Origin: Escherichia coli
Lineage (GTDB): Bacteria > Pseudomonadota > Gammaproteobacteria > Enterobacterales > Enterobacteriaceae
Reading direction: 5' to 3' (one strand)
Assembly: GCF_003334335.1 (NCBI RefSeq)
Contig: NZ_QOWQ01000009.1
DNA: 64,000 nucleotides
Below, piece after piece: positions 1,873 to 46,609 of the stretch; position 1 is the stretch's first letter, and the number at the start of each line of letters is the position of its first letter. The position numbers and the translations under genes are program-made. The notes beneath the pieces are model-generated. The model was not told the DNA's origin. It searched no databases and saw nothing but the letters and a program-made list of their open reading frames with translations.

Positions 1873-2418
1873 ATGAGTGCCAATGAAAACAACCTGATTT
1901 GGATCGATCTTGAGATGACCGGTCTGGATCCCGAGCGCGATCGCATTATTGAGATTGCCACGCTGGTGACCGATGCCAACCTGAATATTCTGGCAGAAGG
2001 GCCGACCATTGCAGTACACCAGTCTGATGAACAGCTGGCGCTGATGGATGACTGGAACGTGCGCACCCATACCGCCAGCGGGCTGGTAGAGCGCGTGAAA
2101 GCGAGCACGATGGGCGATCGGGAAGCTGAACTGGCAACGCTCGAATTTTTAAAACAGTGGGTGCCTGCGGGAAAATCGCCGATTTGCGGTAACAGCATCG
2201 GTCAGGACCGTCGTTTCCTGTTTAAATACATGCCGGAGCTGGAAGCCTACTTCCACTACCGTTATCTCGATGTCAGCACCCTGAAAGAGCTGGCGCGCCG
2301 CTGGAAGCCGGAAATTCTGGATGGTTTTACCAAGCAGGGGACGCATCAGGCGATGGATGATATCCGTGAATCGGTGGCGGAGCTGGCTTACTACCGCGAG
2401 CATTTTATCAAGCTGTAA
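1873..2418 (+). CDS. orn: oligoribonuclease
   Basis: ORF 1729..2418; sequence [34 protein letters not shown] is Orn; start set to ATG at 1873 (181 aa). Confidence 0.93.
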
Positions 2419-2543: not shown

Positions 2544-2571
2544 TTGCAGAGGGAAAGATTTCTCGTATAAT
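2544..2571 (+). promoter_or_regulatory. sigma70-type promoter for the tRNA-Gly operon: -35 TTGCAG, 16-nt spacer, -10 TATAAT, GC-rich discriminator GCGCCTCCC
   Basis: Read directly: TTGCAG at 2544-2549, TATAAT at 2566-2571, A/T-rich UP-like tract upstream, tRNA starts at 2629. Confidence 0.6.
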
Positions 2572-2628
2572 GCGCCTCCCGTAACGACGCAGAAATGCGA
2601 AAATTACGAAAGCAAAATTAAGTAGTAC

Positions 2629-2704
<76 letters not shown>

Positions 2705-2740
2705 AAATTTGAAAAGTGCTGCAAAGCACAGACCACCCAA

Positions 2741-2816
<76 letters not shown>

Positions 2817-2834
2817 AATTCTTCTCTCAATAAA

Positions 2835-3084
2835 ATATCCACAGCGACGCGATGCGTTATTGCTGGTTTTTGTTGTCTCTGACAAACTCTTGTAAACAGA
2901 GTTATCCACAGCCTCAGGCTGTAATCTTAATTTCAAAGAAACTTCGCACGGTGAATAGTATTTTTTTAACCTATTGATAGATAAGTTAAAAATTAAGATT
3001 CCGTTTTGTCGAGTCGATCACTTGACGATTTTATTCGTCTTGAATTGCAATGCGTTTTTATTTTTATTCACAAGCTGTGGATGA
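2835..3084. promoter_or_regulatory. datA: DnaA-box cluster with IHF-like site, consistent with the datA DnaA-titration locus
   Basis: TTATCCACA at 2902-2910 and TTATTCACA at 3064-3072 match TTATNCACA exactly; ATATCCACA at 2835-2843 and minus-strand TCATCCACA at 3076-3084 are 8/9; TATCAATAGGTTA (WATCAANNNNTTR) on minus strand about 2967-2979; location downstream of tRNA-Gly and into queG 3' end fits my recollection of datA. Confidence 0.6.
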
Positions 3085-3085
3085 A

Positions 3086-4223
3086 TCAGGCGTCACGCGG
3101 TAACCCTTTTTCAATCACCCGAACCAGACGCTGTTTTTTCGGCAATTGCACTTCGACTATGCACGCATTTCGTCTCTCTATTTGCTGCGCAATCGCCCAC
3201 GCTATGTGCTCATCGAGAAGTGGGTGCTCACCTTTACGACTTTCCAGCGCTGTCAAAATCGTTTCATCCCAAGGGGCATTGCCTAATGCTACGGCGATAT
3301 TACGCAGCCAACGCAGGTGACCAATACGACGAATCGCCGATCCTTCCGTGACTTTTAAAAACTTCTCTTCGCTCCAGGCGAATAACTCAATGAGTTCCGG
3401 TGCGTGTAGCGGCTTACGCGGGCTGAAATCCTCTTCTGTGGTGAGTTGTGAATAGCGATTCCACGGGCAGATAAGCTGGCAGTCATCGCAACCGTAAATA
3501 CGGTTTCCCATTAACGGTCGCAACTCTTCCGGGATCGCCCCTTCAAGTTCGATGGTGAGATAAGAGATACAGCGGCGAGCATCGACGGTATATGGCTCGA
3601 CGATGGCACCGGTCGGGCAAATCGTCATACAGGCCACGCATTTGCCGCATCCTTCCTCGACTGGTTGATCCACGGGCAGCGGAATATCGACCAGCAATTC
3701 GCCTAAAAAGAAGAACGAACCGGCCTCGCGATTGAGGATAAGTGAGTGCTTACCTGTCCAGCCGAGCCCAGCTTTTTCAGCTAACGGGCGCTCGAGAATA
3801 GGCGCAGAATCGACAAACGGTCTAAAATTCAGCGAAACACAATGTTGCTGAATCATCTCGCCCAGCTTTTTGAGTCGGTTGCGCAGAAGTTTGTGATAGT
3901 CACGGCCCAGCGCATAACGGCTAACATAGCCGAGTTTGGGGTTTTTCAGCGTGCTGGCAAATGCGGCGTTAGCAGGAAGGTAATTCATCCGCACGCTGAT
4001 CACGCGCAGCGTACCGGGCAATAACTCATGAGGGCGAGCGCGCAGCATACCGTGACGTGCCATCCAGTCCATTTCGCCGTGGTATTGTTTGTCCAGCCAT
4101 GCTTGCAGTTTGGGCTCGGACTCGCTGAGATCGGTATCGGTAATACCTACCTGCTGAAAGCCCAGTTCCAGCCCCCACTGTTTAATTTTTTGCGCTAACT
4201 GATTGAGATCGAGGGGCTCTGAC

Positions 4224-4225
<2 letters not shown>
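3086..4225 (-). CDS. queG: epoxyqueuosine reductase (4Fe-4S, cobalamin-dependent)
   Basis: ORF 3086..4333; MSEPLDLNQLAQKIKQWGLELGFQQVGITDTDL and Cys clusters CGKCVACMTICP / CDDCQLICP; start trimmed to ATG at 4225 (379 aa). Confidence 0.9.
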
Positions 4226-36768: not shown

Positions 36769-36825
36769 GTAGCGAGCACTTGCAGATATCGATAAGGGCC
36801 ACAATAAGCAGCCCTACGAAGATAA

Positions 36826-37797
36826 TTACTTAGCTGCCTGAATATCAGCCAGCATTGGGGCAAGGGCTGGGTTGTCCTTAGCGAAGTTTGCGTACATTGG
36901 CTGTACTTTCTCGATAAACGGAGCTTTATCTACCTGGTAGACTTTCACGCCCATTTTATCCAGTTTTGCAAATTCTTGTTTCTCTTCCTCGCTCCACAAG
37001 TCTTTCATGTAGCTCATTGATTCTTTAGCTGCTTTTAATATAACTGCCTGATTTTCCTGGCTAAGTTTATCAAACGCAGCATTGCTCATCAGAACCACAT
37101 CGGGAACCATAGTGTGTTCGTCAAGGCTGAAGGATTTTGCCACTTCACCGTGACGCATGGTAGTCAGCGCCATCACGCTGTTTTCTGCCATATCGACCAC
37201 ACCCTGCTGTAAGGCTGTATACAACTCGCCGTAATCCAGTGGCGTCGGGTTACCGCCCATGACTTTGATCATTTCAACTGCGCCAGGGCTTGGCTGGACA
37301 CGGACTTTCATGCCTTTCAGATCGTCTGGTTTCAGTACTGGTTTATTGCCATAGAAACTGCGGGCGCCTCCATCATAAAAAGTCAGCCCGAAATAACCTT
37401 TGCTTTTCGTTGAGTCGAGGATTTTTCTCCCGATATCGCCCTGCATGACCTGATAATAATGATCACGATCGCGGAACAAATAAGGCAGGCTAAATAATTT
37501 ATAGGAATTTTCAAATGCTTCCATTTCTGCCGCATTGGTTTTTACCAGGGGAATAGCGCCAGAACGAATCAGCTCCATTGTTTCTCGTTGAGTACCCAAT
37601 GTTCCATTTGGATAAATACGAATAGTAATATCACCGTTAGAGTACTCTTTGCTCTTTTTCGCAAAGAACTCCATCGCTTTATGAACAGGATGAGACTTAT
37701 CCTGATTATGACTCAGTTTTAATGTCACTGCCCAGGACTGGCTTGCGGATAACATAAGAACAGCACCGATAATGCCAGCGGATACTTTTATTTTCAT
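36826..37797 (-). CDS. TRAP transporter periplasmic solute-binding protein (DctP family)
   Basis: 323 aa, signal peptide MKIKVSAGIIGAVLMLSASQSWA; DctP-like fold with Arg in YDGGARSFYG at the position typical for carboxylate binding; last gene of operon; AT-rich. Confidence 0.8.
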   Translation of the reverse strand: MKIKVSAGIIGAVLMLSASQSWAVTLKLSHNQDKSHPVHKAMEFFAKKSKEYSNGDITIRIYPNGTLGTQRETMELIRSGAIPLVKTNAAEMEAFENSYKLFSLPYLFRDRDHYYQVMQGDIGRKILDSTKSKGYFGLTFYDGGARSFYGNKPVLKPDDLKGMKVRVQPSPGAVEMIKVMGGNPTPLDYGELYTALQQGVVDMAENSVMALTTMRHGEVAKSFSLDEHTMVPDVVLMSNAAFDKLSQENQAVILKAAKESMSYMKDLWSEEEKQEFAKLDKMGVKVYQVDKAPFIEKVQPMYANFAKDNPALAPMLADIQAAK

Positions 37798-37849
37798 AGA
37801 TGTTCCTTTTCTAATAAATATGGCGGCAGGTGCCGCCAGTGAATGCGCA

Positions 37850-39151
37850 TCAGTAGCCCAGTGCTCTTGGCAATGCCATACTGATTTGCGGAATATAGGT
37901 CACCATTGCCAGCACCAATACCATCACGGCATAGAATGGCAGCATAGGTTTGATAATTTTATTAATCGGTAATTTAGATACACTACAACCGACAAATAAC
38001 ACACTGCCTACAGGCGGAGTACAAATACCGATACACATGTTCAGTACCATGACAATACCAAAGTGAATCGGGTCCATGCCCAGTTCGGTGACAACCGGTA
38101 AAAATATCGGCGTAAAAATCAGTACCGCCGGTGTCATATCCATAAAAGTGCCGATAATCAACAGGATAATATTGATAATAAGCAGGATTATTATTGGGTT
38201 GTCAGAAATAGTGTTAAGCAAATCGAGAATCAGGAAGGGAACGTCAGCGTTTGACATTGCCCATGACATACCCATCGAAGAACCAATTAATAACAAGACA
38301 ATTGCAGTGGTAATAACGGATTCCAGAAATATTTTAGGTAAATCTTTAACTGAGATTTCACGATAAAGAACCAGTGCAAGGAAAAGGGTATAAATTACTG
38401 CAATTGCGGAGGCCTCTGTCGGGGTAAAAATACCACTTAATACACCCCCCATAATTAAAATAATCAGGAAAATACTGGGGATAGCCATCCATATCGCAAC
38501 GCCAGCCTGGCGTAAAGTCGGGCGTTCTGGCTTTGGATAACCGCGACGTACCGCGATAATACCGGCTATTACCATCAGTGCCAGACCCAGCAAAATTCCC
38601 GGAACATAACCCGCCAGGAACAGTGCGGCAATAGAAGTACCACCACTGACCAGTGAATAGACGATTAACGTATTACTTGGTGGAATAAGCAAACCCGTCG
38701 GGGCAGAGGCAACGTTAACCGCAGTACTGAATGCCGGGTCGTAACCCTCTTTAACCTGTTGCGGATGCATGACGCCGCCCATCGCAGCCGCCGAAGCCAC
38801 GGCTGAACCAGAAATTGCCCCGAACAGCATATTGGCGAGAATATTACAGTGGGCAAGTGAGCCTGGCAGACGACCGCCGAGAATACGGGCAAAGTTGATT
38901 AATCGTCGCGCTATTCCTCCATGGTTCATAATGTTGCCAGACAAGATAAAAAATGGGATTGCCAACAACGTAAAACTATCTAACCCGGAGGCTAACTTTT
39001 GGGAAACCACACTCAATGCTGAGTTGAAATCGAGTTGTGTGGAAATTGATGCCAGTGTCGATAAACCAATGGCATAAACAATAGGTACACCTAATGCCAA
39101 CATAAAAAAGAAGGCACCAAATAACACAATAATCGGTAACCAGTAATCCAT
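37850..39151 (-). CDS. TRAP transporter large permease (DctM family)
   Basis: 433 aa polytopic membrane protein, typical DctM N-terminus MDYWLPIIVLFGAFFFMLALGVPIVYAIGLSTLA; GGAG SD before ATG; sampled lines about 30% G+C. Confidence 0.85.
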   Translation of the reverse strand: MDYWLPIIVLFGAFFFMLALGVPIVYAIGLSTLASISTQLDFNSALSVVSQKLASGLDSFTLLAIPFFILSGNIMNHGGIARRLINFARILGGRLPGSLAHCNILANMLFGAISGSAVASAAAMGGVMHPQQVKEGYDPAFSTAVNVASAPTGLLIPPSNTLIVYSLVSGGTSIAALFLAGYVPGILLGLALMVIAGIIAVRRGYPKPERPTLRQAGVAIWMAIPSIFLIILIMGGVLSGIFTPTEASAIAVIYTLFLALVLYREISVKDLPKIFLESVITTAIVLLLIGSSMGMSWAMSNADVPFLILDLLNTISDNPIIILLIINIILLIIGTFMDMTPAVLIFTPIFLPVVTELGMDPIHFGIVMVLNMCIGICTPPVGSVLFVGCSVSKLPINKIIKPMLPFYAVMVLVLAMVTYIPQISMALPRALGY

Positions 39152-39193
39152 AATTTCTCCATTCCTACTATGGTTGGTTGTTGTTTGTTATCT

Positions 39194-39694
39194 TTAGAGT
39201 GGTTGTTTAAGTTCGGTTAAAACCATATCTATGGTGTATATAATAATAAGTACACCACTAATCGGGATGCTCATATAGATATATCCCATTTGCCAGCCTA
39301 AAGCGGGCGAGGTCTGACCTGAATCGAATGTATCCATCGTTAATAGCCCACCACCATATACCATAATGATGGTTGCGAAGATAATAACGATAATCTGAAT
39401 ACACAAAAATAAATGACGTCGGGCTTTTCCTTTCAGCATCATAGGTAGCAGGTCAATCGCCAGATGCCGGTTTTGCCCTGCGGTGTATGCCCCACCAAAA
39501 AGTCCAAGACAAATAAAGAGCAAACGGCTGAGTTCATCTGTAAAAATACTGGGACTAGTAAATATAAATCGTGCAGCCACCTGCCACGTCACACATGCCA
39601 CGATGATCGCCAAAATGGTAATGTTCAATGCTGCAAGCAGAGCATTAATAGATCTAATTATATTTCGCATAGTGATTAACCTTTGCAATATCAT
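39194..39694 (-). CDS. TRAP transporter small permease (DctQ family)
   Basis: 166 aa, four hydrophobic segments, size and position typical of DctQ; start ATG overlaps stop of upstream flavoprotein gene (ATGA). Confidence 0.7.
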   Translation of the reverse strand: MILQRLITMRNIIRSINALLAALNITILAIIVACVTWQVAARFIFTSPSIFTDELSRLLFICLGLFGGAYTAGQNRHLAIDLLPMMLKGKARRHLFLCIQIIVIIFATIIMVYGGGLLTMDTFDSGQTSPALGWQMGYIYMSIPISGVLIIIYTIDMVLTELKQPL

Positions 39695-41772
39695 TCATCC
39701 TGTGGCTGGTAAATTGTCCCATTAAGAAAACCAGGCCAGTTTTTTTCAAACCAAATACCTCGGATAATAGGAAACTCACGAACAGGTGTTTCTCTGACGT
39801 GAAAGATACCGTTGCAATAATGAATAAGTAGTTTATCTTTTTTATCCTCAGTACGCTCTGAACGAAAGCGCCAGGCATCACAAAAACCATTTCGTGTTTG
39901 CGGAATAGAATTTCCATCCCTGTCGAGAATAATACGTGCTCCCCGACTACCACCACCTGCGTCAATATAATGCGTTAATTGCGTTAATACGGCGGCAGAA
40001 GTCAGTGCCATATGCCGCCACATAAACAGCTCGGCAACTTCACCCACATGTTTGATAGCCAATCCATGCCGTTGGACAAATTCGCTCAATAGCAGGGCAT
40101 CGCGAGTGGCGCGTCGGACTTTATCGGCATGGCAAATAAATCCCGCATGGTCAGACATTCGTGCCTGAATTTTTTCTCTCACAACCGACAACGGCATCCC
40201 GGTCCCGTTATCGTGCGCCTGAGTAATGATCTCTCTTATAGAAGCCAGTGTAGGAGCTACCAGCTGTGCTATATCTCCATCAATATTCCGCTTTTGCGTG
40301 CAACCAATAAAACGTGCCAGACGAACAGCAAAAACCTGCCCGGCATTCAATGCTGCACCACCAGGGCGAGTGACGCCGTGTGTGCCAGCAACTTCCCCCA
40401 CGGCGAAACAGCCGGGCAGGGAGGTTTGTCCCCAGATATCCACTTCAATGCCGCCATTCATATGCTGATTATTCATGGCAAACTGCAAAGGCTGTGTGGT
40501 GAGATCGTAACCGTGCATCTTATACAGCGAGATAGACAGCGGATTCATTCGTTGCAGCCGTTCGATGGGCGATGGTGCCAGAGCGTCGTTATTTTCCAGA
40601 TACGCGCGAACGTCGTCGTCCAGTCGATCTAATGAGAACGGCAGGTCACCCGGCACCGCTTCAGGATTGCGATTGAAATCCATAAATACCTGACGCCCTG
40701 ATTGCTGCTCTTGCGCTACTGCCATATCTAACAAGCTGGAGCCAAAATCCATCACCCGAGTGGCGTGGAACGGCCACTGATAGCCTTTACGGAAAATGTT
40801 TGAAGCCAGCTCCTGGGTGGTGCGATAGTAATCCGCGAGGAAGTTATACTCGTTACCCTCAGCATCCACGGAATAGATATACGGGATCACCTGTACATAG
40901 GTGCCGGATAAATTCCACGGAAACGTGCTACGCGGCGTGCCTATACCAAACTGGCTTTCGGTCAGATTGGTTAGCGTCAGGCCTTCCTCCAGCGCCAGCC
41001 CCAGCGAGCCAAAACATTTGTGTGGGTACACACTGTCGCGATAAAGCTCGCCAGGCCCTCCTGTTGCCAGTACCACATTGGGCGCAGTCACAATTGCCAG
41101 CCCCCAAGGGTTATGGGCGCGATGACCGGTCGCGAGGATTGCCCCCGCAACACGGTCTTCGCCGTTTTCGTCACGCTGATGCAGCAGTTTAATCACTGTT
41201 GCACTGGTCAACACTGGAATGGCGAGGCGCTGTACTTCTTCCAACAGCACTTTCACCATTAACCTTGAGGTACGCGGCCCACACGAGGTTGCACGCCCGG
41301 CTTCGTCATGGTCGGTTTGATAACGAAGAATCGCGCCATAGCGATCTTCCGGTAATTCCAGACCAAGATATTGCAACCCGCCAAGAGTGTGCAGAGAACC
41401 TACCGCTTCGACATAAGCGGTGTCGTGATCCATCGCCCCACCGCTCGCCAGTGCCTCTGCCAGTTTGGTGAAGTTGTCGCCGTTGCCCGCGGTAGCGGCG
41501 GTAAACAGTGTCTGTTTATCGGAACCAGAACATGCCGACGTCCCCATATATAACCCGGCGGTGGCGATCAGCACATTTTGCTGGCGGCGTTTAAGTTCCA
41601 CAGCTGCACGCAGCCCGGCTGCACCACTGCCGACTACCAGGGCATCTGTTTGCCAGAGTGGGTAATCAACACCGTCTACCGTGACAACCCATGCGGGCTC
41701 TGCCTGTGCAAAACCCTTTGGGAAAGTAACGTGCGTCAGCGCATCAAGGATGGTGTCATCAAGCTGACTCAT
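39691..41772 (-). CDS. FAD-dependent oxidoreductase, fumarate reductase/succinate dehydrogenase flavoprotein-like (693 aa)
   Basis: N-terminal dinucleotide-binding motif ALVVGSGAAGLRAAVEL; C-terminal FAD motif GCFAVGEVAGTHGVTRPGGAALNAGQVFAVRLARFI; no RSHT-type covalent-FAD His motif seen; ATGA overlaps on both sides. Confidence 0.75.
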   Translation of the reverse strand: MSQLDDTILDALTHVTFPKGFAQAEPAWVVTVDGVDYPLWQTDALVVGSGAAGLRAAVELKRRQQNVLIATAGLYMGTSACSGSDKQTLFTAATAGNGDNFTKLAEALASGGAMDHDTAYVEAVGSLHTLGGLQYLGLELPEDRYGAILRYQTDHDEAGRATSCGPRTSRLMVKVLLEEVQRLAIPVLTSATVIKLLHQRDENGEDRVAGAILATGHRAHNPWGLAIVTAPNVVLATGGPGELYRDSVYPHKCFGSLGLALEEGLTLTNLTESQFGIGTPRSTFPWNLSGTYVQVIPYIYSVDAEGNEYNFLADYYRTTQELASNIFRKGYQWPFHATRVMDFGSSLLDMAVAQEQQSGRQVFMDFNRNPEAVPGDLPFSLDRLDDDVRAYLENNDALAPSPIERLQRMNPLSISLYKMHGYDLTTQPLQFAMNNQHMNGGIEVDIWGQTSLPGCFAVGEVAGTHGVTRPGGAALNAGQVFAVRLARFIGCTQKRNIDGDIAQLVAPTLASIREIITQAHDNGTGMPLSVVREKIQARMSDHAGFICHADKVRRATRDALLLSEFVQRHGLAIKHVGEVAELFMWRHMALTSAAVLTQLTHYIDAGGGSRGARIILDRDGNSIPQTRNGFCDAWRFRSERTEDKKDKLLIHYCNGIFHVRETPVREFPIIRGIWFEKNWPGFLNGTIYQPQDE

Positions 41773-45961: not shown

Positions 45962-46609
45962 ATGTATCTTGATACCAGCAACGTACAGAGCCTGAAGGAA
46001 AAGCTGCTGTTATGCGCGGTTAATGAATTTGCCGAATATGGTTATGAAGGGGCCAGGGTCGATAATATTGTTAAGGCTGCGGGGTGTAGTAAACAGACGG
46101 TTTATCATCACTTTGGTAATAAAGAAAATTTATTTATTGAAGTACTGGAATATACCTGGAACGATATTCGACAAAAAGAAAAGGCCCTTGATTTCTCAGA
46201 TCTTCCGCCACAAAAAGCCATTGAGAAAATTATTGATTTTACATGGGATTATTATATTGCTAATCCCTGGTTTTTAAAAATTGTGCATAGTGAAAATCAA
46301 AGTAAAGGTGTGCATTATGCAAAATCACAGCGTCTCTTAGAAATTAACCATGCGCACTTGCAGTTAATGGAATCCTTATTGGATGAAGGGAAGAAACACA
46401 ATATTTTTAAGCCAGATATCGACCCATTGCAGGTGAATATTAATATTGCTGCGCTTGGCGGATATTATTTGATCAACCAGCATACGCTTGGCCTGGTTTA
46501 TCATATCAGTATGGTTTCCCCCCAGGCACTGGAAGCCAGACGTAAGGTCATCAAAGAGACAATCCTTAGCTGGCTTTTGGTTGACCCTTCATCTACCGCG
46601 CACGAATAA
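45962..46609 (+). CDS. TetR-family transcriptional regulator
   Basis: N-terminal [47 protein letters not shown]; ORF track start 45938 is TTG, first ATG at 45962; 3' end overlaps ytfB 3' end by 17 nt. Confidence 0.8.

Follow-up and report, generated by a model that had tools for sequence, protein, structure and literature searches.

The window analyzed here is a stretch of 64,000 nucleotides from contig NZ_QOWQ01000009.1 of Escherichia coli. The part of interest has the gene order orn, two tRNA-Gly genes, an intergenic region of 269 bp (2817-3085), queG, and nnr. The intergenic region has an A+T content of 65%, compared with 48% for the whole window. DnaA boxes were scored against the consensus TTATNCACA and IHF sites against the consensus WATCAANNNNTTR; the resulting motifs are compiled, along with the neighboring genes, in Table 1. 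Four boxes, two of them perfect, span together 250 nt of the intergenic region (2835-3084). The two perfect boxes, boxes 2 and 3, are 162 bp apart and enclose one IHF-binding site (IBS), which is separated from box 2 by 56 bp and from box 3 by 84 bp and is bordered 5' by an A/T-rich tract (positions 2980-2995 of the plus strand). Boxes 3 and 4 are convergent, with a spacer of 3 bp. The original prediction, which was made from the letters of the window, had listed these two perfect and two 8/9 boxes and the IHF match within about 250 nt, as well as a further 8/9 box on the minus strand inside queG. All of these motifs were recovered where it had put them. Absent from its list was box 7, an essential box of low affinity that precedes box 2 by 3 bp and points the same way; TTGTAAACA is the only site with no more than two mismatches that is found directly upstream of box 2 in the orientation of the latter.

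The tRNA-Gly genes are preceded by a probable promoter, the -10 element of which is followed by a GC-rich discriminator, GCGCCTCCC, as read from the sequence. The exact placing of this promoter is our own and is to be taken as probable; a scan for consensus promoters listed none here, and the -35 element TTGCAG matches the consensus at only 3 of 6 positions. Similarly, the terminator scan overlooked the known glyV-X-Y terminator, which has an interrupted stem, and RNA folding recovered it as a hairpin of -14.3 kcal/mol (z = -2.8), along with a second, small hairpin that overlaps box 2. According to the literature, the glyV-X-Y promoter is the source of read-through transcription across datA, and the terminator TglyV-X-Y, which overlaps box 1, is an attenuator that permits this read-through (PMC10950094).

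Table 1. Genes, transcription signals, and protein-binding motifs in the tRNA-Gly/queG region (positions in the window)
Feature	Position	Strand	Basis or remark
orn	1873-2418	+	
glyV-X-Y promoter (probable)	2544-2571	+	-35 TTGCAG 2544-2549, 16-nt spacer, perfect -10 TATAAT 2566-2571
tRNA-Gly(GCC), first copy	2629-2704	+	ARAGORN; annotation of identical strain
tRNA-Gly(GCC), second and last copy	2741-2816	+	Aligns to K-12 glyY; ARAGORN; MG1655 alignment
DnaA box 1, ATATCCACA	2835-2843	+	8/9; dispensable for DDAH; motif scan
TglyV-X-Y intrinsic terminator/attenuator	2839-2875	+	Hairpin 2839-2866, then UUUUUGUUG; overlaps box 1
Minimal functional datA (boxes 7, 2, IBS, 3, 4)	2890-3084		195 bp; published sizes
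DnaA box 7, TTGTAAACA	2890-2898	+	2 mismatches; low affinity, essential; coordinates inferred from review descriptions
DnaA box 2, TTATCCACA	2902-2910	+	Perfect; essential; motif scan, subDnaAbox2_L/R primers
IHF-binding site (IBS), TATCAATAGGTTA	2967-2979	-	Exact WATCAANNNNTTR match; published MG1655 IBS
yjeV	3050-3103	+	Annotated ORF of 17 codons; overlaps boxes 3 and 4 as well as the 3' end of queG
DnaA box 3, TTATTCACA	3064-3072	+	Perfect; essential; motif scan, literature
DnaA box 4, TCATCCACA	3076-3084	-	8/9; stimulatory, not essential; motif scan, PMC5742627
queG (epoxyqueuosine reductase)	3086-4225	-	Downstream neighbor bounding datA
DnaA box in queG, CTATTCACA	3447-3455	-	8/9; outside the minimal region; motif scan
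nnr		+	Beyond queG

To identify the locus, we aligned positions 2741 to 3500 with positions 4392583 to 4393342 of strain MG1655, which extend from glyY through the 3' part of queG, and found 760 of 760 positions to be identical. According to the literature, datA follows glyV-X-Y and precedes queG (PMC10950094, PMC10380432), and the locus analyzed here is situated between the last tRNA-Gly gene, whose final base is 2816, and the stop codon of queG (3086-3088). Several published items fall on the very same bases. (i) The IBS of MG1655 datA, printed as TATCAATAGGTTA in Suppl. Fig. S11 of Frimodt-Moller et al. 2015, coincides with the site at 2967-2979. (ii) The primers subDnaAbox2_L/R (PMC10950094, Kasho et al. 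2024) directly adjoin the 9-mer at 2902-2910, and the primer ChdatAsubIBS from the same study substitutes 2967-2979, namely, the IBS. (iii) The primers delter_L/delteronly_R, again from PMC10950094, take out approximately 2832-2854, a segment that includes box 1 according to that paper. (iv) Box 7 through box 3 (2890-3072) covers exactly 183 bp, which is the published minimal length of datA without box 4 (PMC5742627); other values in the literature are 187 bp (PMC10380432) and, with box 4 included, about 200 bp. Since the published IBS, the mutagenesis primers, and the 183-bp length are all anchored to these bases, we consider it almost certain that region 2835-3084, with a functional core at 2890-3084, is the chromosomal locus datA and that it works via DDAH. 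No sequence feature that contradicts this identity was seen.

In K-12, datA is reportedly located at 94.7 min, in work attributed to Kitagawa in 1996 and 1998, to Kasho and Katayama in 2013, and to Kasho in 2017. The element in this stretch is hence an already known one, and there is nothing new in the finding itself: sequence, position, motif set, and spacing are identical to those of K-12 datA, and they are conserved. The two loci share boxes 1, 7, 2, 3, and 4, the IHF site, the spacing, the neighbors, and 100% identity from glyY to queG, and their sole difference is the upstream tRNA-Gly array, which has three copies in K-12 and two here. This two-copy array is the only strain-specific feature, and it brings the promoter approximately 112 bp nearer to the IHF site than in K-12. 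The 8/9 box within queG probably belongs to the outer boxes that the original 1-kb datA fragment carried, perhaps as box 5. With respect to location, the original prediction had compared the locus to datA, and the alignment goes beyond this comparison in that the locus is datA itself and not merely similar to it. The assigned role, hydrolysis of DnaA-bound ATP after initiation, agrees with DDAH, the published function (PMC5742627). It had also been stated that ORF-based annotation does not reveal the locus, and this is borne out by RefSeq, where yjeV or a "hypothetical protein" is the only annotation inside datA (MG1655 and a PGAP-annotated strain). Reading of the raw sequence can therefore recover a functional noncoding replication-control element that annotation omits.

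For this strain, the mechanism and timing of datA action can be proposed by carrying them over from the identical K-12 sequence. ATP-DnaA would occupy the high-affinity boxes 2 and 3 and, in a cooperative manner, the low-affinity box 7 (PMC5742627); boxes 7, 2, and 3 all point in the same direction, an arrangement that should allow head-to-tail AAA+ contacts. After initiation, IHF is expected to bind to the single IBS between boxes 2 and 3 and to bend the DNA sharply, and this bend would bring the arm with boxes 7 and 2 into contact with the arm with boxes 3 and 4. The DnaA oligomer assembled at datA would then hydrolyze its ATP, a reaction for which Arg285, Arg281, and Arg334 would be required. 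ADP-DnaA would dissociate, so that datA could act catalytically, lower the initiation potential, and prevent untimely reinitiation. Prior to initiation, read-through from the tRNA-Gly promoter over the IHF site is proposed to exclude IHF; the tRNA terminator/attenuator over box 1 and DnaA bound to box 2 would lower this read-through, and IHF, once bound, would block it in return (PMC10950094). Negative supercoiling and the early duplication of the oriC-proximal datA may also favor action after initiation; in K-12, datA is found at about 0.47 Mb from oriC, on the replichore that also carries DARS1 (PMC5742627, PMC4585315). HU cannot substitute for IHF at datA (PMC5742627). For the K-12 sequence, the stimulation of DnaA-ATP hydrolysis is known to depend on IHF, and removal of datA is known to result in untimely initiation (PMC5742627, PMC5835720). 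DDAH is described as auxiliary to RIDA in one report, according to which cells without all extrinsic DnaA regulators can be nearly normal (PMC11331064). Few other DNA elements are known that change the nucleotide state of a protein catalytically, and datA ties tRNA transcription to replication timing.

The conservation of the locus was assessed at two levels. Within the species, a 1.1-kb query around the locus matched every one of the 5426 complete E. coli genomes, in several cases at 100%, and the 269-bp intergenic region was present once in each of the 5426, with an identity of at least 95% in all but 3 of them. Across species, we took one GTDB representative genome for each species and searched it for the architecture TTATNCACA-N50-62-TAANNNNTTGATW-N76-92-TTATNCACA, a pattern that could return only loci within these preset spacing ranges. 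At least 120 loci were obtained; among the matches listed, 45 were from Enterobacterales and showed datA synteny, and 75 were from other bacteria. The Enterobacterales species listed belong to the genera Escherichia, Enterobacter, Buttiauxella, Cedecea, Pantoea, Tatumella, Serratia, Rahnella, Rouxiella, Chimaeribacter, Edwardsiella, Providencia, Morganella, Photorhabdus, and Xenorhabdus. Their loci are preceded by one to seven tRNA-Gly genes wherever the stored flank reaches that far, and queG has its 3' end 190 to 220 bp downstream of box 2; in the 45th locus, that of Tatumella, orn and nnr are present and no queG match was obtained.

A number of conclusions can be drawn from the 45 species listed. 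(i) The spacing is narrower than the search demanded, since the gap between box 2 and the IBS is 55 to 58 bp (50 to 62 bp permitted by the pattern) and that between the IBS and box 3 is 82 to 86 bp (76 to 92 bp permitted). (ii) Box 2 reads TTATCCACA in 45 of 45 loci, even though the search had left position 5 free, and the ACAGA upstream of it, which comprises the 3' half of box 7 and part of the spacer, is invariant in all 45 species. The long spacers between the motifs otherwise diverge freely. The comparison thus lends support, beyond what the search pattern imposed, to box 7 and to the fixed 56/84-bp geometry. (iii) Only 19 of the 45 species have an inverted box resembling box 4 at 3 bp past box 3, which fits the published stimulatory but nonessential role of box 4 (PMC5742627) and shows that this box is dispensable. 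(iv) The geometry is kept regardless of the distance to the tRNA array, which ranges from 90 to 1,400 bp among the species listed.

The main alternative to DDAH is the original model of 1996 to 1998, in which the boxes form a passive sink that soaks up free DnaA and leaves its nucleotide state unchanged. As the sole function of the locus we regard this as very unlikely. The two perfect and several near-perfect boxes are compatible with such a sink, datA does titrate DnaA directly, and point mutations in box 2 or the IBS merely reduce titration (PMC5835720). However, a point mutation in the IBS, in box 2, or in box 7 produces a complete delta-datA phenotype, and DDAH largely accounts for the titration that had appeared to be very high (PMC5835720, PMC5742627). 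Half a dozen boxes are also too few to hold a large share of the cellular DnaA, and simple titration does not need the strict IHF site, orientation, and spacing seen in the 45 species listed. In K-12, replacement of the IBS or inversion of box 3, with the boxes kept, is reported to abolish function. Titration by the datA boxes is real but secondary (PMC5835720); in the double designation of the original prediction, titration/inactivation, it is consequently inactivation, in the form of DDAH, that stands as the principal activity.

Less probable still, to the point of being highly improbable, is a role confined to transcription, in which roadblocks of DnaA and IHF, together with the terminator, would govern tRNA-Gly read-through into the convergent queG or the yjeV promoter and any effect on DnaA would be incidental. 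The hairpins over boxes 1 and 2 would suit such a role, and read-through is indeed attenuated by IHF bound to the IBS and by DnaA bound to box 2 (PMC10950094). That study, however, reads transcription as the regulator of IHF binding and not the reverse, the published phenotypes of the point mutants contradict a purely transcriptional function, and the geometry is conserved at all of the tRNA array distances given above.

We further considered that the boxes might form a DnaA-reactivating site of the DARS type, which promotes ADP release, or a cryptic origin. A set of DnaA boxes with an IHF site is also found in DARS2 and oriC, and the convergent boxes 3 and 4 resemble DARS boxes I and II. As read from DARS1 and DARS2 of E. 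coli, the DARS core consists of box III, 3 bp, box II, 5 bp, and the inverted box I, i.e., TTATNCACA-N3-TTATNCACA-N5-TGTGNATAA. No such triple is present at 2835-3084, where boxes 3 and 4 are 3 bp apart and lack a third box, and none was found in the 45 Enterobacterales datA loci among the matches listed. A 13-mer DUE consensus, GATCTNTTNTTTT, was not found in 2600-3300 with up to two mismatches, and the flanks are taken by the tRNA genes and queG. The chance that the locus is a DARS-type site or an origin is accordingly negligible.

The comparison with these elements places datA, acting via DDAH, among related systems. (i) DARS2, located between rppH and mutH in E. coli, is likewise a noncoding box cluster with a convergent box pair that needs timely IHF binding and negative supercoiling. 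In contrast to datA, its output is ADP release and not ATP hydrolysis, and it requires the core triple III-3bp-II-5bp-I and Fis sites, whereas the essential boxes of datA are all head to tail. (ii) The left DnaA-oligomerization region of oriC (R1, IBS1, R5M, and others) shares with datA an IHF bend between boxes that leads to a head-to-tail oligomer of ATP-DnaA and an involvement of Arg285 and Arg281 (PMC5742627). Unlike oriC, datA has no duplex-unwinding element, and its interbox distance is longer, so that HU cannot stand in for IHF (PMC5742627). The outcomes also differ, namely, unwinding at oriC and ATP hydrolysis, for which Arg334 is needed, at datA. (iii) In Bacillus subtilis and Streptomyces coelicolor, untimely initiation is repressed by chromosomal clusters of DnaA boxes that have been cited as datA analogues (PMC5742627), but their sequence and context are unrelated, and they are not known to act by IHF-dependent hydrolysis.

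To evaluate a chance grouping of box-like 9-mers, we used first-order Markov simulations of the 64-kb window as the null model. Exact copies of TTATNCACA number 2 in the 64 kb, compared with 1.97 expected, and both are in the tRNA-Gly/queG intergenic region; with up to one mismatch, 50 were observed and 47 expected. The window is therefore not rich in boxes overall, because the total counts match expectation. The intergenic cluster is the densest in the window, with 4 boxes in 250 bp and 5 in 650 bp (up to one mismatch). Four such boxes in 250 bp were reached in 6 of 200 simulated sequences, and the number of 8/9-or-better boxes is thus by itself only modestly unusual. Two perfect boxes within 170 bp were encountered in 12 of 1500 simulated sequences, and at least two perfect boxes plus at least four boxes in total within 250 bp were encountered in 1 of 1405. 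The claim of a density "far above chance" needs to be qualified, as it is too strong for the plain number of boxes at up to one mismatch. On the two strands of the 64 kb together, there are three exact matches to the IHF consensus, one of which is located between the two perfect boxes. Although the region is AT rich and 3% of the simulated windows match the cluster by count alone, the rarity of the joint cluster, the exact IHF site between the boxes, the identity to an experimentally defined locus, and the conservation of boxes and not of spacers across genera leave practically no room for a chance grouping. In the background scan, the remainder of the window showed no similar density, and all other local maxima have at most 3 boxes each and none that is perfect. 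Two of these groups were tried as rival clusters and rejected: that at 37607-37752 is covered by an ORF (36826-37797) in a TRAP-transporter segment, that at 46282-46323 maps into fklB, and neither contains a perfect box.

Apart from the enteric loci, the scan revealed that a datA-like layout, in which a consensus box is followed after about 56 bp by an IHF site oriented as in datA and, about 84 bp further on, by a box cluster, recurs outside the Enterobacterales. Among the matches listed, the loci with this layout form conserved families in Oxalobacteraceae, Methylophilaceae, Sutterella, Methylococcales-like genomes, and Xanthomonadales. For most of the 75 nonenteric matches listed, orthology to datA was rejected, as they have no tRNA-Gly or queG synteny. 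About ten of the 75 are from AT-rich metagenome-assembled genomes of Bacteroidota, Firmicutes, or alphaproteobacteria and look like chance matches due to base composition; we estimated the chance matches for the pattern at about 0.2 at uniform composition and tens-fold more at 70% A+T. Since the scan preselected the spacing, the nonenteric geometry is to be seen as a lead and not as a result. The DARS2 homologues described in the literature that we covered all come from gammaproteobacterial relatives of E. coli, Vibrio and Shewanella among them; our searches returned nothing usable on DnaA-reactivating sequences in betaproteobacteria or otherwise outside the Gammaproteobacteria and no description of a widespread IHF-looped DnaA-regulatory family. 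A tentative and rather doubtful reading of these layouts would be that datA and DARS2 are two specializations of one ancestral IHF-looped DnaA-regulatory module and that a widespread family of such modules controls the DnaA nucleotide cycle in Beta- and nonenteric Gammaproteobacteria. Loci with a DARS core outside the Enterobacterales, if validated, could extend the paradigm of the DnaA cycle past the relatives of E. coli.

An origin-related role of the nonenteric loci appears unlikely. Neither dnaA, dnaN, nor mnmG was among the neighbors examined, and no AT-rich unwinding region was found beside the GC-rich loci of Oxalobacteraceae. The neighbors vary by clade and include hemE|priA, tatD-family|mtnA, positions downstream of hrpA, and positions upstream of argS. 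The box cluster at the right end contains a DARS-type triple in 47 of the 75 loci listed, TTATYCACA-3bp-TTATCCACA-5bp-TGTGGAnAn, which has the exact geometry of the DARS core; in six Sutterella loci among the matches listed, this triple is on the left side instead. Relative to the core, the IHF consensus of the nonenteric loci is oriented like IBS2 of DARS2 in E. coli, and the distance between them is 82 to 86 bp in the loci listed, compared with 74 bp in E. coli DARS2. In four of the nonenteric clades, the distal box is mostly TTATGCACA among the matches listed. The Xanthomonadales loci have head-to-tail boxes only, in the form TTcccCACA-gac-TTATCCACA, and this arrangement resembles the pair of boxes 7 and 2 of datA.

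A scan of genome contigs (one genome per species, loci L003 to L122) for the datA architecture, that is, a DnaA box, 50 to 62 bp, an IHF consensus, 76 to 92 bp, and a second box at preset spacing, revealed at least about 65 conserved loci outside the Enterobacterales that fit this pattern, including L064, L066, L040, L110, L074, and L118. Among the matches listed, these loci were found in the Oxalobacteraceae, Methylophilaceae, Sutterella, Methylococcales-like bacteria, and Xanthomonadales, and they were without tRNA-Gly/queG synteny. At least 47 of the non-Enterobacterales loci terminate in an exact DARS-type triple (box, 3 bp, box, 5 bp, inverted box), which is located 82 to 86 bp from the IHF consensus; on the opposite side of the consensus, these loci contain a TTATGCACA box at 56 to 59 bp. 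In the literature that could be searched, no description of DARS-type loci was found beyond Gammaproteobacteria related to E. coli.

A variant was observed in Xanthomonadales (Rhodanobacter, Dyella, and Lysobacteraceae; loci L005, L023, L037, L081, and L109), with argS downstream. Its elements are arranged in the order TTATGCACA, 58 bp, IHF site, 84 bp, and TTcccCACA-gac-TTATCCACA, and its DnaA boxes are oriented in the same direction only. The final pair resembles box 7/box 2 of datA, although in datA that pair lies across the IHF site from this position. This variant could be an analogue of datA rather than a DARS.

Additional features were identified within datA itself (see the table). The predicted hairpin has a folding energy of -8.0 kcal/mol (z = -3.5) and is not kept in E. 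albertii or the other genera compared; it possibly contributes to the attenuation ascribed to box 2. Several short blocks at 3013-3063, in the spacer that separates box 3 from the IHF site, lie outside the search pattern yet are kept in many Enterobacterales genera. We know of no published role for these blocks; they may serve as low-affinity DnaA sites or as a target of Dam/SeqA.

Predicted and conserved sequence features within datA
Feature	Position	Remarks
Small GC-rich hairpin ACAGCC-UCA-GGCUGU	2908-2922	RNA fold prediction; overlaps the 3' end of box 2
Conserved block GATCACTTG	within 3013-3063	contains GATC at 3016
Conserved block TTGAnnnnCAA	around 3040-3052	
Conserved T-run	immediately 5' of box 3	

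Upstream of datA, the window contains only two tRNA-Gly(GCC) genes (2629-2816), whereas K-12 possesses three (glyV, glyX, and glyY). When a 1.1-kb query with the two-copy array was compared with the 5426 complete E. coli genomes, 626 of them matched 80% or more of its length in one piece. Among the Enterobacterales matches listed, the copy number ranged from 1 to 7, with seven copies in Enterobacter ludwigii (L091). Since read-through from the tRNA-Gly operon regulates IHF binding at datA (PMC10950094), the length of the array might tune this binding.

The datA intergenic region (2817-3085) had 5429 matches in E. coli genomes; two of these were on plasmid-classed records and might represent F-prime-like captures or artefacts of assembly. 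A datA-type element (ACAGAG-TTATCCACA, IHF site, TTATTCACA) was also present in the very AT-rich metagenome-assembled genome Enterobacteriaceae bacterium Fux382_bin38 (L042). Neither queG nor tRNA-Gly was detectable near it within the stored flanks, which suggests that datA can persist after the loss of its usual neighbours.

Elsewhere in the window, a strain-variable segment (36776-39934) codes for a TRAP transporter (DctP/Q/M-like). This version was found in about 1445 of 5426 genomes, some of which carry an IS1 insertion within the segment; strain LH10-b-1 has an MFS transporter in its place.
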